Below, in pieces: positions 20,663 to 55,372 of a stretch of DNA of 64,000 nucleotides. The notes beneath the pieces were generated by a model that saw only the letters and a program-made list of their open reading frames with translations, ran no database searches and had not been told where the DNA came from. This DNA is from a virus: positions 28,923 through 92,922 of IMG/VR virus record IMGVR_UViG_3300013901_000011, one strand, 5' to 3'. How positions within the stretch are numbered: the first letter of the stretch is position 1; each line of letters starts with the position of its first letter. Position numbers and translations under genes: made by a program.

Positions 20663-22204
20663 TTATTCATTTACATCTGTTTCTTTGAAAGACTCAATAG
20701 CTTTTGTTCCAAGAACACCAGCTAAAAGAGATTTAACATCAATACCAAGAGATTCACTTAATCCCTCAGATACCTGAGTTACATTTGTCATAATATCTCC
20801 TGCTAGTTTGGAAGTATCTCCACCAAGCATTACAATTTTATCAACGTTTGTATACCCTTTACCAACAGCCTCAGCAATAGCAGGTAACTGCTCGAAGTAA
20901 AGTTTGAGTGCCTGCAACTGCATGTCCTGCTTAGCGGCCTCGCCATACTGTTTCATAGCTTCTGCTTTCTTCTGAAGACCTTCAGCCTCAGCTTCAAGTT
21001 TTGCTCTAATTGCGGCAGCTTCTGCCTCACCTTTTGCTCTAGCTGCAGCCGCATCAGCTTCACCCTGTGCTTTTACTGCATCCGCAAGTGCTTTCTTAGC
21101 TTCAGAATCTCTCTGTGCTTCTGCAAGAGACGCTTCTGCCTGTTTTGTTCTCTCGAACAACTCAGCTTCAGATTTCTTCTGAGTTTCATACAGTTTTGCA
21201 TCAGCTCTCTGCTGTGCTGCATATTTTTCAGCTTCTGCGGTTTTCTTAACTTCAGCTTCCAGAGCACGTTCTTTAATAGCTACTTCTCTCTCTTTTAACT
21301 CAATCTGTTTCTCTTGACGAGCAATGTCTGCTTCAGTAGCAGCAACGTCTTTAATCTGACGCTGTTTCTCATCCTCGATAGCTTTTGCTGCATCAGCCTG
21401 CGCTTTGCGGGTATCCGCACTTTTCTTTAAATCTGCCTGTTTGATTTCAAATTCGTTGTTACGAACTGCAATCTGTTCAGCAGCTGCAACCTTAGCATCA
21501 TTAGCTTCTTTGGAGTTCTGAGCTTCTGCGATAGCTACTTCTCTTTCAGCATTGGATTTTGCAATAGCGGCGTTTTTAGAAATCTGCGCCATATTGTCCT
21601 GACCAAGAGCAGTGATAAGATTTTTCTCATCTTCTAACTTCTGAATATTACAGGATTCAATCCAAATACCAAGAGCGTTCATGTCTTTCTGCGCTTTTGC
21701 CTGAACTTCATCTCCAAAGGCTTTACGGTCATTACATAACTGTTTTAATTCCTGGGTTCCAATAATTTCTCGCATATTACCCTGTAAAGAATCCTGTAAA
21801 GACTGTTCAATCTGCTCTTTAGACATATTAAGGAAGTTCTTCATTGCTGCGGCAACCATCTCAGGTGTAATACCTTTTTCTTCATCATTGAGGTCATTCT
21901 CAGTAAGAACTCTTACTTTTGCTACTGCGTCAATGTTTACACCAATAAAGTCTTTAGTTGGAATATAACCATTTGTTTTGATGTCAATAGACATCTGACG
22001 CAAGGTTAAGGTATCCATTCTTTCAAAGAAAGGAATCTTAATACCGGCTTTACCAATCAGGATTCGAGGCTCTTTGTGAAAACCAGAAATAATGTAAGCT
22101 GTATCCGGCGGAGCTTTAACATATCCTGAAGCAATTACTGCGATAATGACAACCGCAAGTAAAACAAAAGGTACAAACGGTAAGATAGTTGTTAGAAAAT
22201 TCAT
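20663..22204 (-). CDS. SPFH/band-7 (flotillin-like) membrane protein
   Basis: N-terminal TM helix, SPFH core (YVKAPPDTAYIISGF...), long EA-rich coiled-coil typical of bacterial flotillins (FloT/YuaG-like). Confidence 0.75.
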   Translation of the reverse strand: MNFLTTILPFVPFVLLAVVIIAVIASGYVKAPPDTAYIISGFHKEPRILIGKAGIKIPFFERMDTLTLRQMSIDIKTNGYIPTKDFIGVNIDAVAKVRVLTENDLNDEEKGITPEMVAAAMKNFLNMSKEQIEQSLQDSLQGNMREIIGTQELKQLCNDRKAFGDEVQAKAQKDMNALGIWIESCNIQKLEDEKNLITALGQDNMAQISKNAAIAKSNAEREVAIAEAQNSKEANDAKVAAAEQIAVRNNEFEIKQADLKKSADTRKAQADAAKAIEDEKQRQIKDVAATEADIARQEKQIELKEREVAIKERALEAEVKKTAEAEKYAAQQRADAKLYETQKKSEAELFERTKQAEASLAEAQRDSEAKKALADAVKAQGEADAAAARAKGEAEAAAIRAKLEAEAEGLQKKAEAMKQYGEAAKQDMQLQALKLYFEQLPAIAEAVGKGYTNVDKIVMLGGDTSKLAGDIMTNVTQVSEGLSESLGIDVKSLLAGVLGTKAIESFKETDVNE

Positions 22205-26178: not shown

Positions 26179-27561
26179 TTACATTTCACTCAGCAAATCT
26201 TCAGATACATTATCAGTTTCTCCAGAAGCTTCAGCCTGAGCCACAGCAATTCCAGATAAACATTTAAAGTCATAATTTTTGTGCTTATATGCGGCAAATC
26301 CTGGACGATTCAGAATTCTGCATACAACACCTTCCCGCACATGAGTTTTACCTACTGGGTCTGGACCATCATAGTATTTCTCTGCGATTTCTTTAATATA
26401 TTCTCCTGGATTTACTTCCTCTGGAATAAAGCCTCTCCACAGAAGTGGAACACATTTAACTCCCATCTGTTCACAACGATAACGCATAAAGTCTGGAGTA
26501 TATTCTACTACATCACCATCTTCATTTGTAGTTGTCATACGGTAAACGTATAAATCAGATTTTTTGTTATCTGGGTCACAGCCATAAGAGAATACAGTTT
26601 CTTCTCCATACTGTTTGATAAATTCTTTATTATTTAACTTTTTATTGCTAGCTTTTGGCATGATTGGAACACCATCATCAGTAAAACCAACAATTTCATA
26701 ATAAACAGTTTCGTCTTTATGAAGTTTTCCCTCAAAGACTTTTTCGTGCTTTTCTCTAAACTCATTGGAGCCATAAAAACCACCATCGAAGGAATCTAAT
26801 ACGGTTCTGCGGGTTCCAGATACAAGACCCCAATCGTATTTAGGTTTGCTATGCTTATCGAAGTAAGCAACCATAGCTTTCTGCAATTTATTGAGTTTTC
26901 TATCTCGGTCTTTAATTTCACAGAAAACCGCAAGTACATTTGTTGGAACAATATCCACTAATCTTGGTAGATATCCAGTTCTACCAGAAGTACCGTGCAT
27001 TTTAAGAGTAATCTCCACAAGGTCACCATTTTTAAAAGCTCCCATATTATAAGCAAGCTGCTCTGTGTCAGCATGTTCAACAAAAAGTGGAGCGATTGGT
27101 ACTTTCTTTTTGCGGGTTTTATTTACTCTATTATCAGCAGAGTGATGTTTGCGGATAGGAATATATTTCTTACAAATTTCATGTCCATTCAAAGTAGTAA
27201 CAGTATCACCAATATTGAGTTCGTCAAGGTTGATTCCTGTATAAACTACACATTTAAGAGGAAGAAACAAGCCATCAGATTTTTCACCTCTTAACCGCAC
27301 AGCAGTAACATTTCTTTTCTTTGGGTCCATATATCCAGTATCTGGAGTACCATCTGGTTTCTTTCTCAGGAGATGATTCTCAAGGCAAAATTCCTCAGAA
27401 AGCTGAAGGTCTACTGGAAAATAAATACCAATCTCACCCATAGTAATATCAAGAGAAACGCAAGTGTCATTTCCAAAGAAAGTAGCAATATTTAATCGGT
27501 CAGCATTTGGATGTTTTCTCAGTTCATTTACTTTTACTACATAACCGCAATGTTCAGACAT
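26179..27561 (-). CDS. ATP-dependent RNA ligase (Rnl2-like KxHG nucleotidyltransferase) with N-terminal tRNA-binding OB-like domain
   Basis: N-terminal KHPNADRL motif typical of Trbp111/EMAP-II tRNA-binding fold; ITLKMHGTSG resembles Rnl2 motif I KxHG. Confidence 0.5.
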   Translation of the reverse strand: MSEHCGYVVKVNELRKHPNADRLNIATFFGNDTCVSLDITMGEIGIYFPVDLQLSEEFCLENHLLRKKPDGTPDTGYMDPKKRNVTAVRLRGEKSDGLFLPLKCVVYTGINLDELNIGDTVTTLNGHEICKKYIPIRKHHSADNRVNKTRKKKVPIAPLFVEHADTEQLAYNMGAFKNGDLVEITLKMHGTSGRTGYLPRLVDIVPTNVLAVFCEIKDRDRKLNKLQKAMVAYFDKHSKPKYDWGLVSGTRRTVLDSFDGGFYGSNEFREKHEKVFEGKLHKDETVYYEIVGFTDDGVPIMPKASNKKLNNKEFIKQYGEETVFSYGCDPDNKKSDLYVYRMTTTNEDGDVVEYTPDFMRYRCEQMGVKCVPLLWRGFIPEEVNPGEYIKEIAEKYYDGPDPVGKTHVREGVVCRILNRPGFAAYKHKNYDFKCLSGIAVAQAEASGETDNVSEDLLSEM

Positions 27562-28421: not shown

Positions 28422-29246
28422 TTATTCCGCCTTTTCTTTTTTCTTTTCTAATTCCTTAAATACTTCTACTGCTTTCTGGTAATTATCTCCATGTACTGAA
28501 TCTGGAATTGCATATATTACCTGTTTAAAATTTTTTCTTTCATCGGCAAGATACTTATTAAACAAAGTAATAACTTCTGTTGCATCCTGACCAAATACGC
28601 CACATCCAAAAGCTCCAAGAATAAGTGTATCTACTCCTTCTCTTGCGGCGATGTCAAGAACAAATTTAATGCGGCTTTCCAAAATTTTGGAATTTTCTTC
28701 CGCAGTAATTCCATATCCATATTTTTTGTTTGGTGTAAGATTTGGAGCTGCACAAGTAATTACATTGATAAACTCTTGGTCATCTCCCTGTTCAAACATA
28801 ATATGTGGAGAAAAAATAGCTCTATTCTCATACATTGCTTTATTAAGATGTTTATTATTCCAATCATAGTAATAATCAAACTCTCTTAATACGTTATATA
28901 AATAAGAATTCTGGCATAAACACTCTTCCTGAGCTCTTGAGCCTTGAAGAAAGCCGCCTCCTGGATTCTTATATGAAGCAAAATTTAAAACACAAATGGT
29001 TCCTTTACCAAAAGTTTTTCTTGCTTTAAAGATTGCTTCAACGCTTCCAACATCCCACAGATAAACTGGCATATTCTCACGATACAAAGGATGTGGAACA
29101 TAAGTATTTCCAGTATAAACATGGCTATTCTTTTTTGCATAAACAATATCTTCTTTATATTTATGAGCCATATCTAAAGTTCTTTTCTTAGCAGTTTCTG
29201 CTCTGCCTTGACGATTACCATCCCAATAATATTTAATTTTGCCCAT
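28422..29246 (-). CDS. bacterial-type poly(ADP-ribose) glycohydrolase-like macrodomain protein (DUF2263/PARG-like)
   Basis: TICVLNFASYKNPGGGFLQGSRAQEE carries the PARG signature GGG-X7-QEE. Confidence 0.6.
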   Translation of the reverse strand: MGKIKYYWDGNRQGRAETAKKRTLDMAHKYKEDIVYAKKNSHVYTGNTYVPHPLYRENMPVYLWDVGSVEAIFKARKTFGKGTICVLNFASYKNPGGGFLQGSRAQEECLCQNSYLYNVLREFDYYYDWNNKHLNKAMYENRAIFSPHIMFEQGDDQEFINVITCAAPNLTPNKKYGYGITAEENSKILESRIKFVLDIAAREGVDTLILGAFGCGVFGQDATEVITLFNKYLADERKNFKQVIYAIPDSVHGDNYQKAVEVFKELEKKKEKAE

Positions 29247-48099: not shown

Positions 48100-48870
48100 T
48101 TAAATTTTACTCCATTCTTCATCAGTATACATCTTTATTTCTGTTTTTTTACTAGGTAAATTTTCTGCTTTACACCATTTTCTAATAGCATTATCAGATA
48201 CACCGTATTTTTCTCCTATACTTAAAAAAGATTCATTTCTAATCAAATCTTTCAACTCCTCTCTATTAGGTCTTTCAACAGAACGAGTTGTTTTTGTATA
48301 ACATTCTAAACATAATCCAGATTTAGAACATGAACTAATTTGCTTACCGCAAGAAGAACAATAATAAATTTTTTCTTCTTTCGGTGCAGTTCTTTTTTCA
48401 AAATTTTCTTTTGAAAATATTAGCTCATCAGAATAATTAATTATTTTTTCAATTTCATAATCTTCAGCTTTATTATAATTATTATTACCATTCTGAGGAG
48501 GACTAAAACGTAATGTTTTACTTGTTGAACACTCCTCAACAGGTATTAAATAAACCTGACCTTTATAATAAGTAGCAAAATAATCAATTTGTTCTTTGGT
48601 ATAAAGATGTCTTACTGTTTTTTGAGTGTTTGTTGTTTGAGACATAGTTGTTATCTGAATTGCAGATGTATCATAACCACCCGCAGCTCCTTTTGATTTT
48701 GGATTAGAGCATGATTTACATTGTATTCGTAAAAATTCTCCATTTACATCAGCAACAAAATCATATTTAGCTCCATTACCATAAGGAATAGAAACTTCAT
48801 ATCCCAATTCAATAAATTTTGAAATACATTGCAATTCTACAATATTTCCAATAGATTGCGTATAATTCAT
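48100..48870 (-). CDS. putative homing endonuclease (PD-(D/E)xK-like N-domain plus shared C-terminal DNA-binding module)
   Basis: C-terminal KDLIRNESFLSIGEKYGVSDNAIRKWC is near-identical to the C-terminus of the GIY-YIG endonuclease at 54605-55372; N-terminal YDFVADVNGEFLRIQCK fits D-E-K nuclease core; embedded in tRNA field. Confidence 0.5.
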   Translation of the reverse strand: MNYTQSIGNIVELQCISKFIELGYEVSIPYGNGAKYDFVADVNGEFLRIQCKSCSNPKSKGAAGGYDTSAIQITTMSQTTNTQKTVRHLYTKEQIDYFATYYKGQVYLIPVEECSTSKTLRFSPPQNGNNNYNKAEDYEIEKIINYSDELIFSKENFEKRTAPKEEKIYYCSSCGKQISSCSKSGLCLECYTKTTRSVERPNREELKDLIRNESFLSIGEKYGVSDNAIRKWCKAENLPSKKTEIKMYTDEEWSKI

Positions 48871-50152: not shown

Positions 50153-50503
50153 TCATTCATAATCAACTTTATCATACATAGGAGCATAACTCTTAACATG
50201 ATTATGAGTTAAAGTTCCTAATAACATTTCATTATCATTTTCTTCTAAAATATAAATATAAGCTTTGTCTGTTGTAATTGCTTGCCTACCCTTTGGGGCA
50301 GTAAGTAATTTTGCACATTTTTCAACTCTACTCATATCAACAGTATTTACTTCCATGCGTCCACCGCCCGCAACTATTACAAAAATAGGTTTATTATTTT
50401 TGAATTTGGGCTTAGCATCAAGAATTTTTCCTGACCACTTTATGCTATATTCCTCATGGATGTCTGTTACTATAAGATGTGTCTTTACTAAAACTTCAGC
50501 CAT
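50153..50503 (-). CDS. hypothetical protein
   Basis: 116-aa ORF inside tRNA field. Confidence 0.3.
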   Translation of the reverse strand: MAEVLVKTHLIVTDIHEEYSIKWSGKILDAKPKFKNNKPIFVIVAGGGRMEVNTVDMSRVEKCAKLLTAPKGRQAITTDKAYIYILEENDNEMLLGTLTHNHVKSYAPMYDKVDYE

Positions 50504-50707
50504 TTATTTCTCCTTTAATGAATTAAAGAAATTTACTATATCACTACTAACCTGTCTAATCTCAATGTTTTTACCTCTTGGTGCAGATTTAGATTTATGA
50601 AAAGGATGCTGTTCTTTCCAACAACTTAAAAAATGCTTTTGAAGTATTTCTTCCTTTTCAAATTTTTTATTACAAGTTGGACAAATATACATATCTCTTC
50701 TCCTCAT
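50504..50707 (-). CDS. small C2H2-type zinc-finger protein
   Basis: CPTCNKKFEKEEILQKHFLSC C-x2-C-x12-H-x4-C pattern. Confidence 0.3.
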   Translation of the reverse strand: MRRRDMYICPTCNKKFEKEEILQKHFLSCWKEQHPFHKSKSAPRGKNIEIRQVSSDIVNFFNSLKEK

Positions 50708-50919
50708 TAAAAGCGGTTAAACCTAATGATGGCACATTAAGCCAACCTAGCTTTAGGTGACAGCCACCTCTGGTGTGCCCTTAGCTTACAAGGACTCATG
50801 CTTCCTGTTGTTTAACGAGGCTATAGCACAAATCAACCTCGGAAATTTTTACGAGTTTAACCTCGGGAAAATCCCGTCCTGCCATAGACACCAAGCCATT
50901 TCCAAAACTTGGCTTTGAA

Positions 50920-51049
50920 CTGGGGTAGCTGGATTCGAACCAGCGTAATGCAGGAGTCATAGAGAATGGAGAGTCTTGAACTCACATCTTAGGTCTTACG
51001 TTTAAACGACATTCCCAAGTCCTGTGCCTTACCGCTTGGCGATACCCCA
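50920..51049 (-). tRNA. tRNA-Pro (TGG)-like gene with ~57-nt insertion in anticodon loop (putative intron)
   Basis: 5' part TGGGGTA-TC-GCC..GGC-A-CAGGA-CTTGGG, then 57 nt, then C-TCCTG, T-arm GCTGGTTCGAATCCAGC, acceptor TACCCCA; total 130 nt. Confidence 0.45.
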
Positions 51050-51269
51050 ATATTCTGAAGCATGAGACTTACCTAGAACGTTCTCTTACAGACAAGCTTC
51101 TGTGCCATCCCCGCGTGTTTCCAGTTTTTGTTGAGTCATGCGGCAGACATACACGGTTTCAAGCCAGGACTCTAATCATTTCGAGATACATTCTGGGTGT
51201 TTGATTAAAAGTCAAATCCAAAATTATTTGCTGTATGTATCTCTTTATATTATATAATTATTATATAAT

Positions 51270-51300: not shown

Positions 51301-51301
51301 A

Positions 51302-51439
51302 CTGGGGATGTGGGACTCGAACCCACGACACAGCGGTTAATCAGAAGATAAGACTTGAACTTAAATTTCTTCAAAATGAAGCGTATTACTTATACTACTT
51401 CCGCACAGCCGCTTGCTCTACCTACTGAGCTAAACCCCA
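51302..51439 (-). tRNA. tRNA (anticodon region CTGTG, His-like GTG) with ~65-nt insertion in anticodon loop (putative intron)
   Basis: Canonical 5' half TGGGGTT-TA-GCTC-AGTAGGTA-GAGC-A-AGCGG, 72 nt, then CCGCT-GTGTC-GTGGGTTCGAGTCCCAC-ATCCCCA; promoter motif directly upstream at 51275-51300. Confidence 0.45.
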
Positions 51440-51692
51440 ATAAACAAGGTGCATATTTTTATTAAAATTATTTGATTTACAATCAAAGCATTTTCTTAAT
51501 ATCGAATTTATCGAAATATTGCTGTTACGCACCTTTATTTTTATTACATATTTATTATACAATATTTTTTATAAAAAATCAATTTAAGATTTTAGGGTTA
51601 CAGCTAAGTTTTTTATGTGGTTGCTTATCCCACTATTTTTGTCCCTATTCTTATTTTCTTCAAATCTTAAATTTATTATACAATAAATTTAT

Positions 51693-52601
51693 TTAAAAAT
51701 CAAATACTTCCTTTAACTTTTTAGCACGAGTCGGCTGACGAAGTTTTTGCAATGCTTTTGCTTCAATCTGTCGAATACGTTCTTTAGTTAAATCATAAAT
51801 CTTTCCAACTTCTTCAAGAGTCTGCGGTTTACCTGTTTTTAATCCAAAACGATAACGAAGAATATCTCCCTCACGCTCCGGAAGTGTATCAAGAATTTTC
51901 TCAATAATGTTCTGTCTTTCAACTTCAAGATAAGCAGTTGCCGGATTCACACAAGTTGTATCTTCAATAAGAGAAGCAACTGTTGCATCATCATCACTAT
52001 CTCCAAGAGACATATCAAGACTGCCAATATCCGCAGAATATTCCAAAAGCTCTCTAACCTCAGAAACTTTCATATCCATTTCTTTAGCGATTTCCGCAGG
52101 TTTCGGGTCTCTACCAAGCTTCATAGATAATTCTCGCTCAGTTTTCTTTACTTTGCTAATGGATTCAACAATATGTGCGGGAATACGAATTGTTCTACTC
52201 TGGTCAGAAATAGCTCGTGTAATCGCCTGTTTAACCCACCAAGTTCCATATGTTGAAAAACGATAACCTTTTGTGTAATCAAATTTTTCAACAGCTTTCA
52301 TTAAGCCAACATTTCCTTCCTGAATTAAATCAAGAAAAGGAATGCCGCATCCAATATAATGCTTTGCCACAGAAATTACAAGACGTAAATTTGCATTTAC
52401 AAATTCATTTCTTGCTTCCATATCTCCTTCCTGGACTCTTTTGGCTAATTCAAGCTCTCTTTCTTCGGTTAAAAGAGGGTATTTACTTACCTCTTTCATA
52501 TACATTTTTATACTGTTATCACTAATAACAACCTCTTTCTCATTTTTGATTTCTTTTTCTTCATCGTTATTCTCTTCTACAAAATTCTCTAAATCGGTCA
52601 A
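51693..52601 (-). CDS. sigma-70 family RNA polymerase sigma factor
   Basis: Region 2 [41 protein letters not shown], region 4 [27 protein letters not shown], region 1.2-like [15 protein letters not shown]. Confidence 0.8.
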
Positions 52602-52604
52602 TAA

Positions 52605-52672
52605 TTTTTCCTCTCTTTCTTAACTTTGTAAAATTATTATAACATTTTAAAAATAAAAAATCAATAAAGTAA
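52605..52672 (-). promoter_or_regulatory. conserved phage promoter plus leader upstream of sigma factor gene
   Basis: Plus strand tctttcttaactttgtaaaattattataacattttaaaaataaaaaatcaataaag. Confidence 0.5.
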
Positions 52673-54530: not shown

Positions 54531-54606
54531 CGCCGAGGAGTTGAACCTCGTTCACCGAGCTTATGAGGCTCAGTTAGATTCCGACCTACCGCCAGCTTTA
54601 TAAATT
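54531..54606 (-). repeat. 76-bp exact direct repeat copy 2 (tRNA-Met-like), abutting stop of GIY-YIG endonuclease gene
   Basis: Identical to 45631-45706. Confidence 0.6.
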
Positions 54607-55372
54607 AAATATCTACCCAAGAAGCATCAGAATATTGCTTAATTTCTTTTTTTGTCCTAGGTAAATTATAAAAATCACACCATTTTCTTATTGCATTATC
54701 TGATACACCAAATTCTTCACCTATTTTTACAAAAGATTGACTACGAATTTTTTCTTTTAATTCTTCTCTTGAAATAATAGAAATACGACTATTATTTTTT
54801 CTACGTTTTTGTTCGCATTCTAAACAACGTTTACTATTTTTATAAACTTCTTTTCCACAATCTACACAATAATAAATTTTTTTATTTCTACTATCATATT
54901 TAGTTAAATGTAAAGGATAAGTTAAATTAGAATTAACCCAAGTTCTTCCAGCATTAATACTTTGAATTGTATCAGGAGAAACATTATACTTTAATGCAAG
55001 TTCTTTATGAGAAACAACACTTTCAGTATCTTTTACTAAAATTTGTTGAATTTCTTGAACTTGATTATATGTTAATTTTCCATGAACTTGATAATCTCCT
55101 CCTGAAGTTTGATTATATTCAGGTTTTAACTTATTAATCCAATAATTTTCTCTTTCATTTAAATCATCAGTACTACATTCTTCAATAACTTCAAAAGTAA
55201 AATTTTGTATACCATATTTACGAAAAGCTCTACTTAATGGATAATTATAACTTTTACTAGTTACATCACTTGAAGCACTTTTTTCATTGTTCCAACGTCT
55301 TTTAATGTTTTTGCTTTGTCCAATATAGCTATGATGATTAATATTATTTGTAATTTTATAAATTCCAATCAT
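54605..55372 (-). CDS. GIY-YIG homing endonuclease
   Basis: N-terminal MIGIYKITNNINHHSYIGQSKNIKRRWNNE GIY-YIG motifs; C-terminal DNA-binding module shared with 48100-48870 protein; stop abuts the 76-bp tRNA-Met-like repeat. Confidence 0.7.
   Translation of the reverse strand: MIGIYKITNNINHHSYIGQSKNIKRRWNNEKSASSDVTSKSYNYPLSRAFRKYGIQNFTFEVIEECSTDDLNERENYWINKLKPEYNQTSGGDYQVHGKLTYNQVQEIQQILVKDTESVVSHKELALKYNVSPDTIQSINAGRTWVNSNLTYPLHLTKYDSRNKKIYYCVDCGKEVYKNSKRCLECEQKRRKNNSRISIISREELKEKIRSQSFVKIGEEFGVSDNAIRKWCDFYNLPRTKKEIKQYSDASWVDI

Follow-up and report, generated by a model that had tools for sequence, protein, structure and literature searches.

A compact RpoD-like sigma factor without region 1.1 in the early region of a large phage and its near-consensus promoter class

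Introduction

Phage sigma factors are usually seen as devices that change promoter specificity. The known late sigma factors are highly diverged in their DNA-recognition regions, and SPO1 gp28 and gp34 and T4 gp55, which act as phage-encoded specificity subunits for host RNA polymerase, serve promoters that are not of the sigma-A type. Bacillus phages also carry sporulation-type sigma factors (SigF/SigG type) that read non-sigma-A promoters (PMC9429907). Phage RpoD-like sigma factors are another category that is already recognised. The "complete" factors of this kind, found in large phages without an RNA polymerase of their own, are thought to recruit host core enzyme (Iyer et al. 2021, PMC7824862).

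Here, we analysed a sigma factor gene in a 64,000-nucleotide stretch of viral DNA (positions 28,923 to 92,922 of the IMG/VR record IMGVR_UViG_3300013901_000011; hereafter the window). This gene adds a member to the RpoD-like category. Like the phage factors of PMC7824862 and PHROG 351, it is phage-borne, close to cellular RpoD and a presumed recruiter of host core. The PMC7824862 examples come for the most part from T4-like jumbo phages that infect Proteobacteria, Cyanobacteria and Bacteroidota. Unlike them, its lineage is found on low-GC contigs with Gram-positive-type wall hydrolases, has a conserved self-promoter and is embedded in a tRNA array. In contrast to gp28, gp34 and gp55, it is primary-type in sequence and in predicted specificity. 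A literature search yielded no description of this lineage and no experimental characterisation of such a phage RpoD-like factor.

Domain architecture of the phage sigma factor

The sigma factor gene spans 51693–52601 on the minus strand of the window and encodes 302 aa, from a TTG start codon (52601–52599) to a TAA stop. A Shine-Dalgarno sequence, AGAGAGGA, can be read at 52609–52616 on the minus strand, 7 nt before the TTG. The TTG start is credible because of this sequence at 7 nt and because acidic N-terminal residues are kept in relatives. The N-terminal tail (aa 1–29; 52515–52601, minus strand) contains 11 D/E versus 3 K/R by charge count, and its acidic character is conserved in the aligned relatives P0005, P0006, P0007 and P0010. 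The tail stands in place of region 1.1 and is similar to the acidic linker found ahead of region 1.2 in bacterial SigA.

Behind the tail, Pfam assigned four sigma-70 regions, all on the minus strand and all far above the gathering scores (cut-offs 22–25). Region 1.2 (aa 30–61; 52419–52514) matched Sigma70_r1_2 (PF00140) at 50.4 bits versus a cut-off of 22. Region 2 (aa 68–137; 52191–52400; PF04542, 77 bits) contains the core-binding 2.2 motif and the −10 recognition and melting residues, and region 3 (aa 146–221; 51939–52166; PF04539, 71 bits) contains the H/E pair of 3.0 for the extended −10 element and a divergent 3.2 finger. Region 4 (aa 237–289; 51735–51893; PF04545, 68 bits) carries the −35 recognition helix LTKERIRQ, with K at the position of E. 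coli R584. The protein had no other Pfam match. The original prediction, made from the sequence, had named a sigma-70 family factor with regions 1.2, 2 and 4; these three are present in the 302-aa ORF, and so is region 3, which it had not listed.

The Pfam search of the protein returned neither Sigma70_r1_1 (PF03979) nor Sigma70_ner. Regions 1.2 and 2 are separated by only 6 residues, and the non-conserved insert is therefore missing. Bacillota SigA, too, normally lacks a large non-conserved region, and this lack is not a special feature. Alignments with the SigA structures of C. difficile, S. aureus and B. subtilis start at chain residues 116, 94 and 98, respectively, so that about 95–115 N-terminal residues are missing from the phage protein, which correspond to region 1.1 and part of the linker. 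The predicted lack of region 1.1 and of the non-conserved region is thereby borne out. A split gene with region 1.1 encoded elsewhere in the window was rejected, as a custom region 1.1 profile gave nothing significant there (best E value 0.11). Neither a second sigma-like ORF nor an RNA polymerase subunit was found in the window.

Relation to known sigma factor families

The sigma-70 superfamily model TIGR02937 scored 126 bits versus a cut-off of 42.9, phrog_351 ("RNA polymerase sigma factor") scored 309 bits (E = 2.3e-91), and all of the listed top NCBIfam models and all three PHROG matches are RNA polymerase sigma-factor families. The regions of the sigma-70 family profile (2 and 4, plus 3) are all present, and the profile match together with the phage genome assigns the protein to the phage sigma factors of PHROG 351. 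No anti-sigma or non-sigma HTH family appeared among the Pfam, PHROG and listed top NCBIfam matches. The best structure match was C. difficile SigA (7L7B, E = 2.8e-94), and S. aureus 8X6F and B. subtilis 7CKQ, which are also primary sigma factors of Bacillota, were close as well (Bacillota SigA structures, E 1e-92 to 1e-94). The factor is compact and primary-like, as had been predicted.

With Bacillota SigA/RpoD (7L7B, 8X6F, 7CKQ) the phage protein shares collinear regions 1.2, 2, 3 and 4 at about 50–56% identity, the same core-binding motif, the same −10, extended −10 and −35 contacts, and the lack of a large non-conserved insert. It differs from them in that about 95–115 N-terminal residues are absent, that it is encoded by a phage and that it scores below the RpoD cut-offs. 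The RpoD equivalog models NF006666 (375 bits versus 572) and TIGR02393 (RpoD_Cterm, 310.6 versus 354) both failed, and every other curated RpoD model was likewise below its cut-off. Region 1.1, a mark of group 1, is not found in the phage sigma factor, while the primary-type −10, extended −10 and −35 contact residues of group 1 are present except for R584K.

Group 2 factors, such as RpoS and M. tuberculosis SigB, share with the phage protein the 1.2-2-3-4 arrangement without a full region 1.1, primary-like recognition residues and a length of about 300 aa, but the likeness is in architecture only. The RpoS model TIGR02394 (302 bits versus 378.7) and the cyanobacterial model TIGR02997 (304.5 versus 384.5) failed; RpoS models scored lower than RpoD models, with both sets below their cut-offs. 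The structure of M. tuberculosis SigB (7PP4) matched at 261 bits and RpoS structures at 212–223 bits. In contrast to the phage gene, group 2 factors are cellular regulators of stress and stationary phase. The MzaA model of the MZA anti-phage system (NF041931) also failed (329 bits versus 800), and only its RpoD-like C-terminal part was matched. The phage sigma factor is group-2-like in architecture and, in sequence, has its affinity to group 1.

DNA-contact and core-binding residues

The phage sigma factor and its clade (n = 12) were compared with 108 bacterial RpoD sequences, with E. coli numbering for R584 and with residue roles taken from PMC2613000 and PMC12262734. Bacterial RpoD has 181 positions with a conservation of at least 95%, of which 122 are kept in the phage protein and 59 are changed. 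The core-binding motif of region 2.2 is intact. The −10 recognition and melting residues Y425, Y430, W433, W434, Q437, T440 and R441 are all kept, as are H455 and E458 for the extended −10 element, and four of the five residues of the −35 recognition helix are kept (E585, R586, R588 and Q589). From the region 2.2 motif and the sequence of region 4, we infer that the phage sigma factor binds core and initiates in a promoter-specific way.

At 36 positions that are at least 90% conserved in RpoD the phage factor has non-bacterial residues, for example R584K, F580Y, V454A, M456I and residues of the 3.2 finger, and at 23 of the 36 the clade residue is absent from all of the 108 bacterial sequences. 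The region 3.2 finger is divergent in the phage clade where bacteria have E(E/D)DSHLGDFIED, with five clade-specific changes at bacterial-invariant sites (positions 203, 207, 208, 210 and 211). V454A and M456I lie around the 3.0 helix. On the surface of region 4.2, the conservation screen found F580Y, R584K, H600Q and S604A; R596Q was read from the region 4.2 alignment blocks and is outside the list of the screen. Because 59 of the 181 conserved positions are changed, including five in the 3.2 finger, initiation properties may differ in an unpredictable way.

R584 contacts the guanine of the −31 C:G pair (PMC2613000, PMC12262734). This position is R in 108 of 108 bacterial RpoD sequences and K in 11 of the 12 clade members. 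R584K had looked like a possible match to the T at −31 of TTGATT, because −31 and −30 are the very positions at which the phage promoters depart from TTGACA. This match was rejected, since relatives that keep R584 (L011/L240 and L200–L204) share the TTGATT promoters. Across the viral lineage K and R alternate at 584 with no relation to the upstream −35 hexamer, and constraint on the 584 contact seems to be relaxed in the phage lineage as a whole.

A near-consensus promoter class in the window and in related contigs

The gene had also been predicted to have its own conserved promoter, and this was confirmed. The promoter, TTGATT-N17-TATAAT at 52636–52664 (minus strand), has TG at −15/−14 and therefore a canonical extended −10 element (TGnTATAAT). 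It is one of 20 exact TTGATT-N16-18-TATAAT sites in the window, which all lie on the minus (coding) strand, versus 0.35 expected by chance. When TTGAT[TA] was allowed, 25 sites were found, and the spacer was 17 bp in 24 of them. The consensus of the class is aTTGATTTTTtat.AaAAaTAttaTATAATA. This extended consensus recurs in about 90 IMG/VR stretches from dozens of contigs, mostly of 150–197 kb. In L003, L005 and L007 about 35 nt separate the end of the same promoter from the sigma start codon, and TTGAT[TA]-N17-TATAAT occurs within 150 nt upstream in about 25 of the about 38 compact viral sigma genes. As read from their sequences, these are near-consensus sigma-A promoters, which should already suit host sigma-A.

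The next promoter of the same class (51675–51703, minus strand) drives the downstream non-coding and tRNA region, and takes its −35 TTGATT from the last codons of the sigma gene. The C-terminal codons TTT GAT TTT TAA (F-D-F-stop, 51693–51703) double as this −35 element. The FDF ending and the promoter overlap are conserved in relatives, with the overlap seen in L003 and L005, and thus protein and promoter constrain each other at this place.

An old lineage of compact sigma factors on viral contigs

A search of 5.8 billion proteins recovered a tight clade of compact sigma factors of 287–338 aa as called, with 60–98% identity and without region 1.1. Some of its members are on 178–181 kb contigs. 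The next tier after this clade was full-length Bacillota RpoD at about 55%. Relatives of the phage sigma factor were also found on IMG/VR contigs of 90–400 kb, and an alignment-based scan of IMG/VR returned 80 sigma loci. About 38 of them are compact ORFs of 279–316 aa without region 1.1, on low-GC contigs up to 402 kb; full-length ORFs that include region 1.1 look bacterial and mostly come from short contigs with higher GC. In L003, L005 and L007 the sigma gene lies in the same tRNA-rich neighbourhood as in the window, and the synteny is kept in contigs of 175–195 kb. The sigma family is thus wider than the original prediction could know.

In a neighbour-joining tree, 36 of 37 sigma factors from viral contigs were separated from bacterial RpoDs with a bootstrap of 140/200, a value to be read with the caveat of long-branch attraction, and the subclade of the window's sigma factor was recovered in 200/200. 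Identity is about 52% among the viral sigma factors versus about 84% among bacterial RpoDs. None of the bacterial RpoDs examined is above about 56% identity to the phage sigma factor, so the gene was not captured recently. Pairwise dN/dS within the window's clade is 0.10–0.23, with synonymous sites near saturation. The sigma gene of this clade is under purifying selection and is maintained. The family is an old, fast-evolving lineage of mostly compact RpoD-like sigma factors on low-GC viral contigs of 130–400 kb.

Longer members also exist. L212 (IMGVR_UViG_3300045988_112927, 190 kb) and L236/L237 (up to 192 kb) encode sigma factors of 338–341 aa that match a region 1.1 profile (1e-8 to 1e-9) and are placed with the compact viral sigma factors in the tree. 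These members suggest that region 1.1 was lost within the phage lineage.

Two other, apparently close full-length relatives with region 1.1, both on 1.5–1.7 kb contigs, were rejected. Windowed identity showed that P0008 (368 aa) is a chimera, which is bacterial-like at first and 97–100% phage-like from the FLDLIQEGN motif onwards, and P0009 (452 aa) is an assembly chimera with a duplicated region 2. Chimeric metagenome contigs were also seen at the DNA level (L001, ERZ27253213 k141_145115; L002, ERZ27286984 k141_1077070). In such contigs the 5′ half of an rpoD is joined to the 3′ half of the phage sigma gene at the stretch coding for FLDLIQEGN, or region 2 is duplicated, and they give misleading "full-length" homologues in protein databases.

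Phage context of the window

The window is an early/replication region of a large phage. All large ORFs are on the minus strand and the GC content is about 33%. The replication and repair genes encode a primase, a DnaB-like helicase, a Sak4-like annealing protein, an NAD-dependent ligase, both topoisomerase II subunits, PhoH and an RNA ligase (26179–27561), and further genes encode wall hydrolases with SH3_3/NlpC-P60 and phage-lysozyme domains. The window carries 23 tRNAs, 21 found by ARAGORN and two interrupted ones found by Rfam, and the sigma gene sits within the tRNA array. This gene content, together with the relatives on IMG/VR viral contigs, supports the original view that the factor is phage-encoded.

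Megablast found no close cultured phage relatives. The best helicase matches (36–40%) were from Enterococcus phages of about 140 kb and SPbeta-type phages. High-scoring "phage" records were not accepted as relatives, as they are unannotated or unverified and probably host DNA; the MaAM05 rpoD was also set aside, because it encodes 358 aa and lies among cyanobacterial-type genes. The Gram-positive-type wall hydrolases, the Shine-Dalgarno usage and the nearest cultured relatives point to a Bacillota host. An assignment of the host from the bacterial half of P0008 was rejected. Its best matches reached only 60–67%, to uncultured gut Bacilli/Clostridium MAGs, and the RpoDs of those MAGs are about 50% identical to the phage sigma factor, no closer than those of other Bacillota.

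Two small ORFs on the minus strand adjoin each other near the sigma gene, one for a 67-aa C2HC-type zinc-finger protein (50504–50707) and one for a 116-aa protein (50153–50503). In L005, L007 and L008, both are within 1–2.5 kb of the sigma gene, on either side. The two ORFs are candidates for transcription-related partners.

A possible role in recruiting host RNA polymerase

On balance, and with moderate confidence, we favour the reading that the phage protein is a functional primary-type sigma factor without region 1.1, which loads host core onto sigma-A-like phage promoters in a feed-forward manner. Early in infection, host sigma-A holoenzyme would transcribe the sigma gene from its near-consensus TTGATT-17-TATAAT promoter; the first sigma transcripts would have to come from host sigma-A, because the gene carries a promoter of this class. 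The phage sigma factor would then use its intact surfaces of regions 2.2, 3.2 and 4 to bind the core RNA polymerase of the host, and the resulting holoenzyme would initiate at the same promoter class, which serves the sigma gene, the tRNA array, and genes for replication and auxiliary functions. Such a feed-forward loop would raise or maintain the share of RNA polymerase on phage DNA. Observed directly were how the domains and the promoters are arranged, which contact residues are conserved, the phage surroundings of the gene, its conservation across the family and the purifying selection on it; core binding, the promoter class served, the loop and any competitive advantage are what we infer.

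Host sigma-A should read TTGATT-17-TATAAT promoters well, and therefore specificity does not account for the benefit of a second, similar sigma factor. The loss of region 1.1 and the changes at sigma-A-invariant sites probably alter core competition, retention and regulation, and probably leave unaltered the core promoter elements that are read. When region 1.1 is missing, E. coli sigma-70 remains bound to core during elongation, and competitor in 25-fold excess fails to displace it (PMC12478191). Like the phage factor, that construct is a primary-type sigma factor lacking region 1.1; unlike it, the construct is a laboratory deletion, and its stable retention through elongation is a lead only for the phage sigma factor. 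In B. subtilis, sigma-A already shows this stable retention (PMC12478191), so it is uncertain what a phage with a Bacillota host would gain by the loss of region 1.1.

If the feed-forward model is true, the benefit of the phage sigma factor would be competition for RNA polymerase, retention on it or regulatory escape, and not a new specificity. The factor looks able to read housekeeping promoters of the host type, yet its lineage is old and occurs on many large uncultured phages. The model would offer a simple and testable case of sigma competition exploited during infection. The lineage provides a natural "region 1.1-less" primary sigma factor and natural R584K variants for biochemical comparison. 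The practical value is modest and lies in better annotation of large phages of the gut or rumen type and in a candidate part with which orthogonal transcription could be built in Gram-positive bacteria.

The main rival is a late-gene sigma factor, which would be expressed from an early or middle promoter and send host core to a distinct promoter class at structural genes outside the window. This is the classic phage strategy, known from SPO1 gp28/gp34 and T4 gp55 (PMC13401047). In related contigs the TTGATT class was seen only beside early and auxiliary genes and never beside recognisable structural genes, and therefore another promoter class probably exists; the promoter-anchored related loci span the early/auxiliary region only, and neither they nor the window contain recognisable structural genes. 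The many substitutions at RpoD-invariant positions, including R584K and the 3.2 finger, would also fit this role. However, the phage protein keeps nearly all of the primary −10, extended −10 and −35 contacts, unlike known late sigma factors, and no late motif was seen in the window or in the related early/auxiliary loci. The original prediction had left open whether host RNA polymerase is redirected to the abundant TTGATT/TATAAT promoters or to a late class not visible in the window. Because the DNA-contact residues are those of a primary sigma factor, the TTGATT/TATAAT class is favoured over an unrelated late class, and we regard the late-gene role as rather unlikely.

Two further readings turn on escape from a silencing of host sigma-A. 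The compact sigma factor may be an orthogonal or inhibitor-resistant stand-in, which by its loss of region 1.1 and its altered region 4.2 and 3.2 surfaces would hold core more tightly and escape a phage or host regulator that silences sigma-A. We consider this quite unlikely; if true, it would mean phage takeover by a near-copy of the housekeeping sigma factor and not by a new specificity, a strategy common to a whole lineage of low-GC phages of 130–400 kb. The other reading is a resistant replacement of sigma-A, in which a phage factor silences host sigma-A through region 1.1 or the region 4 surface, while the phage sigma factor, with no region 1.1 and a changed region 4 surface, escapes and keeps the phage promoters active. 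Phage proteins that bind region 4 of sigma-A exist, for example G1 gp67. The clade changes cluster on region 4.2 at bacterial-invariant sites (F580Y, R584K, H600Q and S604A; also R596Q), region 1.1 is absent from the phage sigma factor, and the small zinc-finger ORF and the 116-aa ORF stay near the sigma gene in relatives. Against this, no anti-sigma gene was found in the window, and the argument comes from substitution patterns only. The replacement reading is unlikely.

The phage protein could also be a dominant-negative competitor, which sequesters host core or blocks host promoters unproductively and thereby shuts off host genes. More stable core binding by a sigma factor without region 1.1 (PMC12478191) would suit such a role, and the divergent 3.2 finger could impair initiation. 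In contrast, the promoter-melting and initiation regions are all conserved and under purifying selection, and with no phage RNA polymerase in the window, the many sigma-70-type promoters need host polymerase. A dominant-negative function is therefore very improbable. Finally, although chimeric rpoD/phage-sigma contigs such as P0008 and P0009 exist in public assemblies and several matching "phage" records are probably host DNA, the reading of the gene as a recently captured host rpoD fragment or an assembly or contamination artefact is effectively refuted by the absence of any bacterial RpoD above about 56% identity, the phage promoter, the phage-type GC content, the synteny in 175–195 kb contigs, and the separate viral lineage (bootstrap 140/200) under purifying selection.

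Other features of the window

Downstream of the sigma gene are the two interrupted tRNAs, both on the minus strand. A tRNA-Asn (51301–51440) carries a 65-nt insert in the anticodon loop, and a tRNA-Pro(TGG) (50919–51050) carries one of 57 nt. Default ARAGORN missed both of them, and Rfam and the intron mode of ARAGORN found both. Scored as a tRNA, the tRNA-Asn insert (51340–51404) alone reaches 36 bits. A T-arm-like GTTCAAG hairpin is present in both inserts, which are too short for group I introns. The interrupted Asn is kept in L009 and L010 and the interrupted Pro in L005, and uninterrupted copies occur in relatives.

Three homing endonuclease genes of the GIY-YIG and HNH types (54605–55372, 48100–48870 and 7300–8289, all minus strand) lie among the tRNA and replication genes, and their positions vary between relatives. 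The gene at 20663–22204 (minus strand) encodes 513 aa with SPFH/Band 7 and flotillin domains, an unusual cargo for a phage. At 37069–38637 (minus strand), a gene for a 522-aa protein adjoins tRNA-Cys; it matches phrog_850 ("RNA-binding protein", 5e-129) and Pfam DUF2828 and DUF7788. This gene is upstream of one for an 823-aa protein like the major vault protein (32767–35238, minus strand; Pfam MVP_shoulder 5e-21, Vault_3 3e-8). Related viral contigs encode homologues of the vault-like protein, of 818–831 aa, immediately downstream of promoters of the same class.
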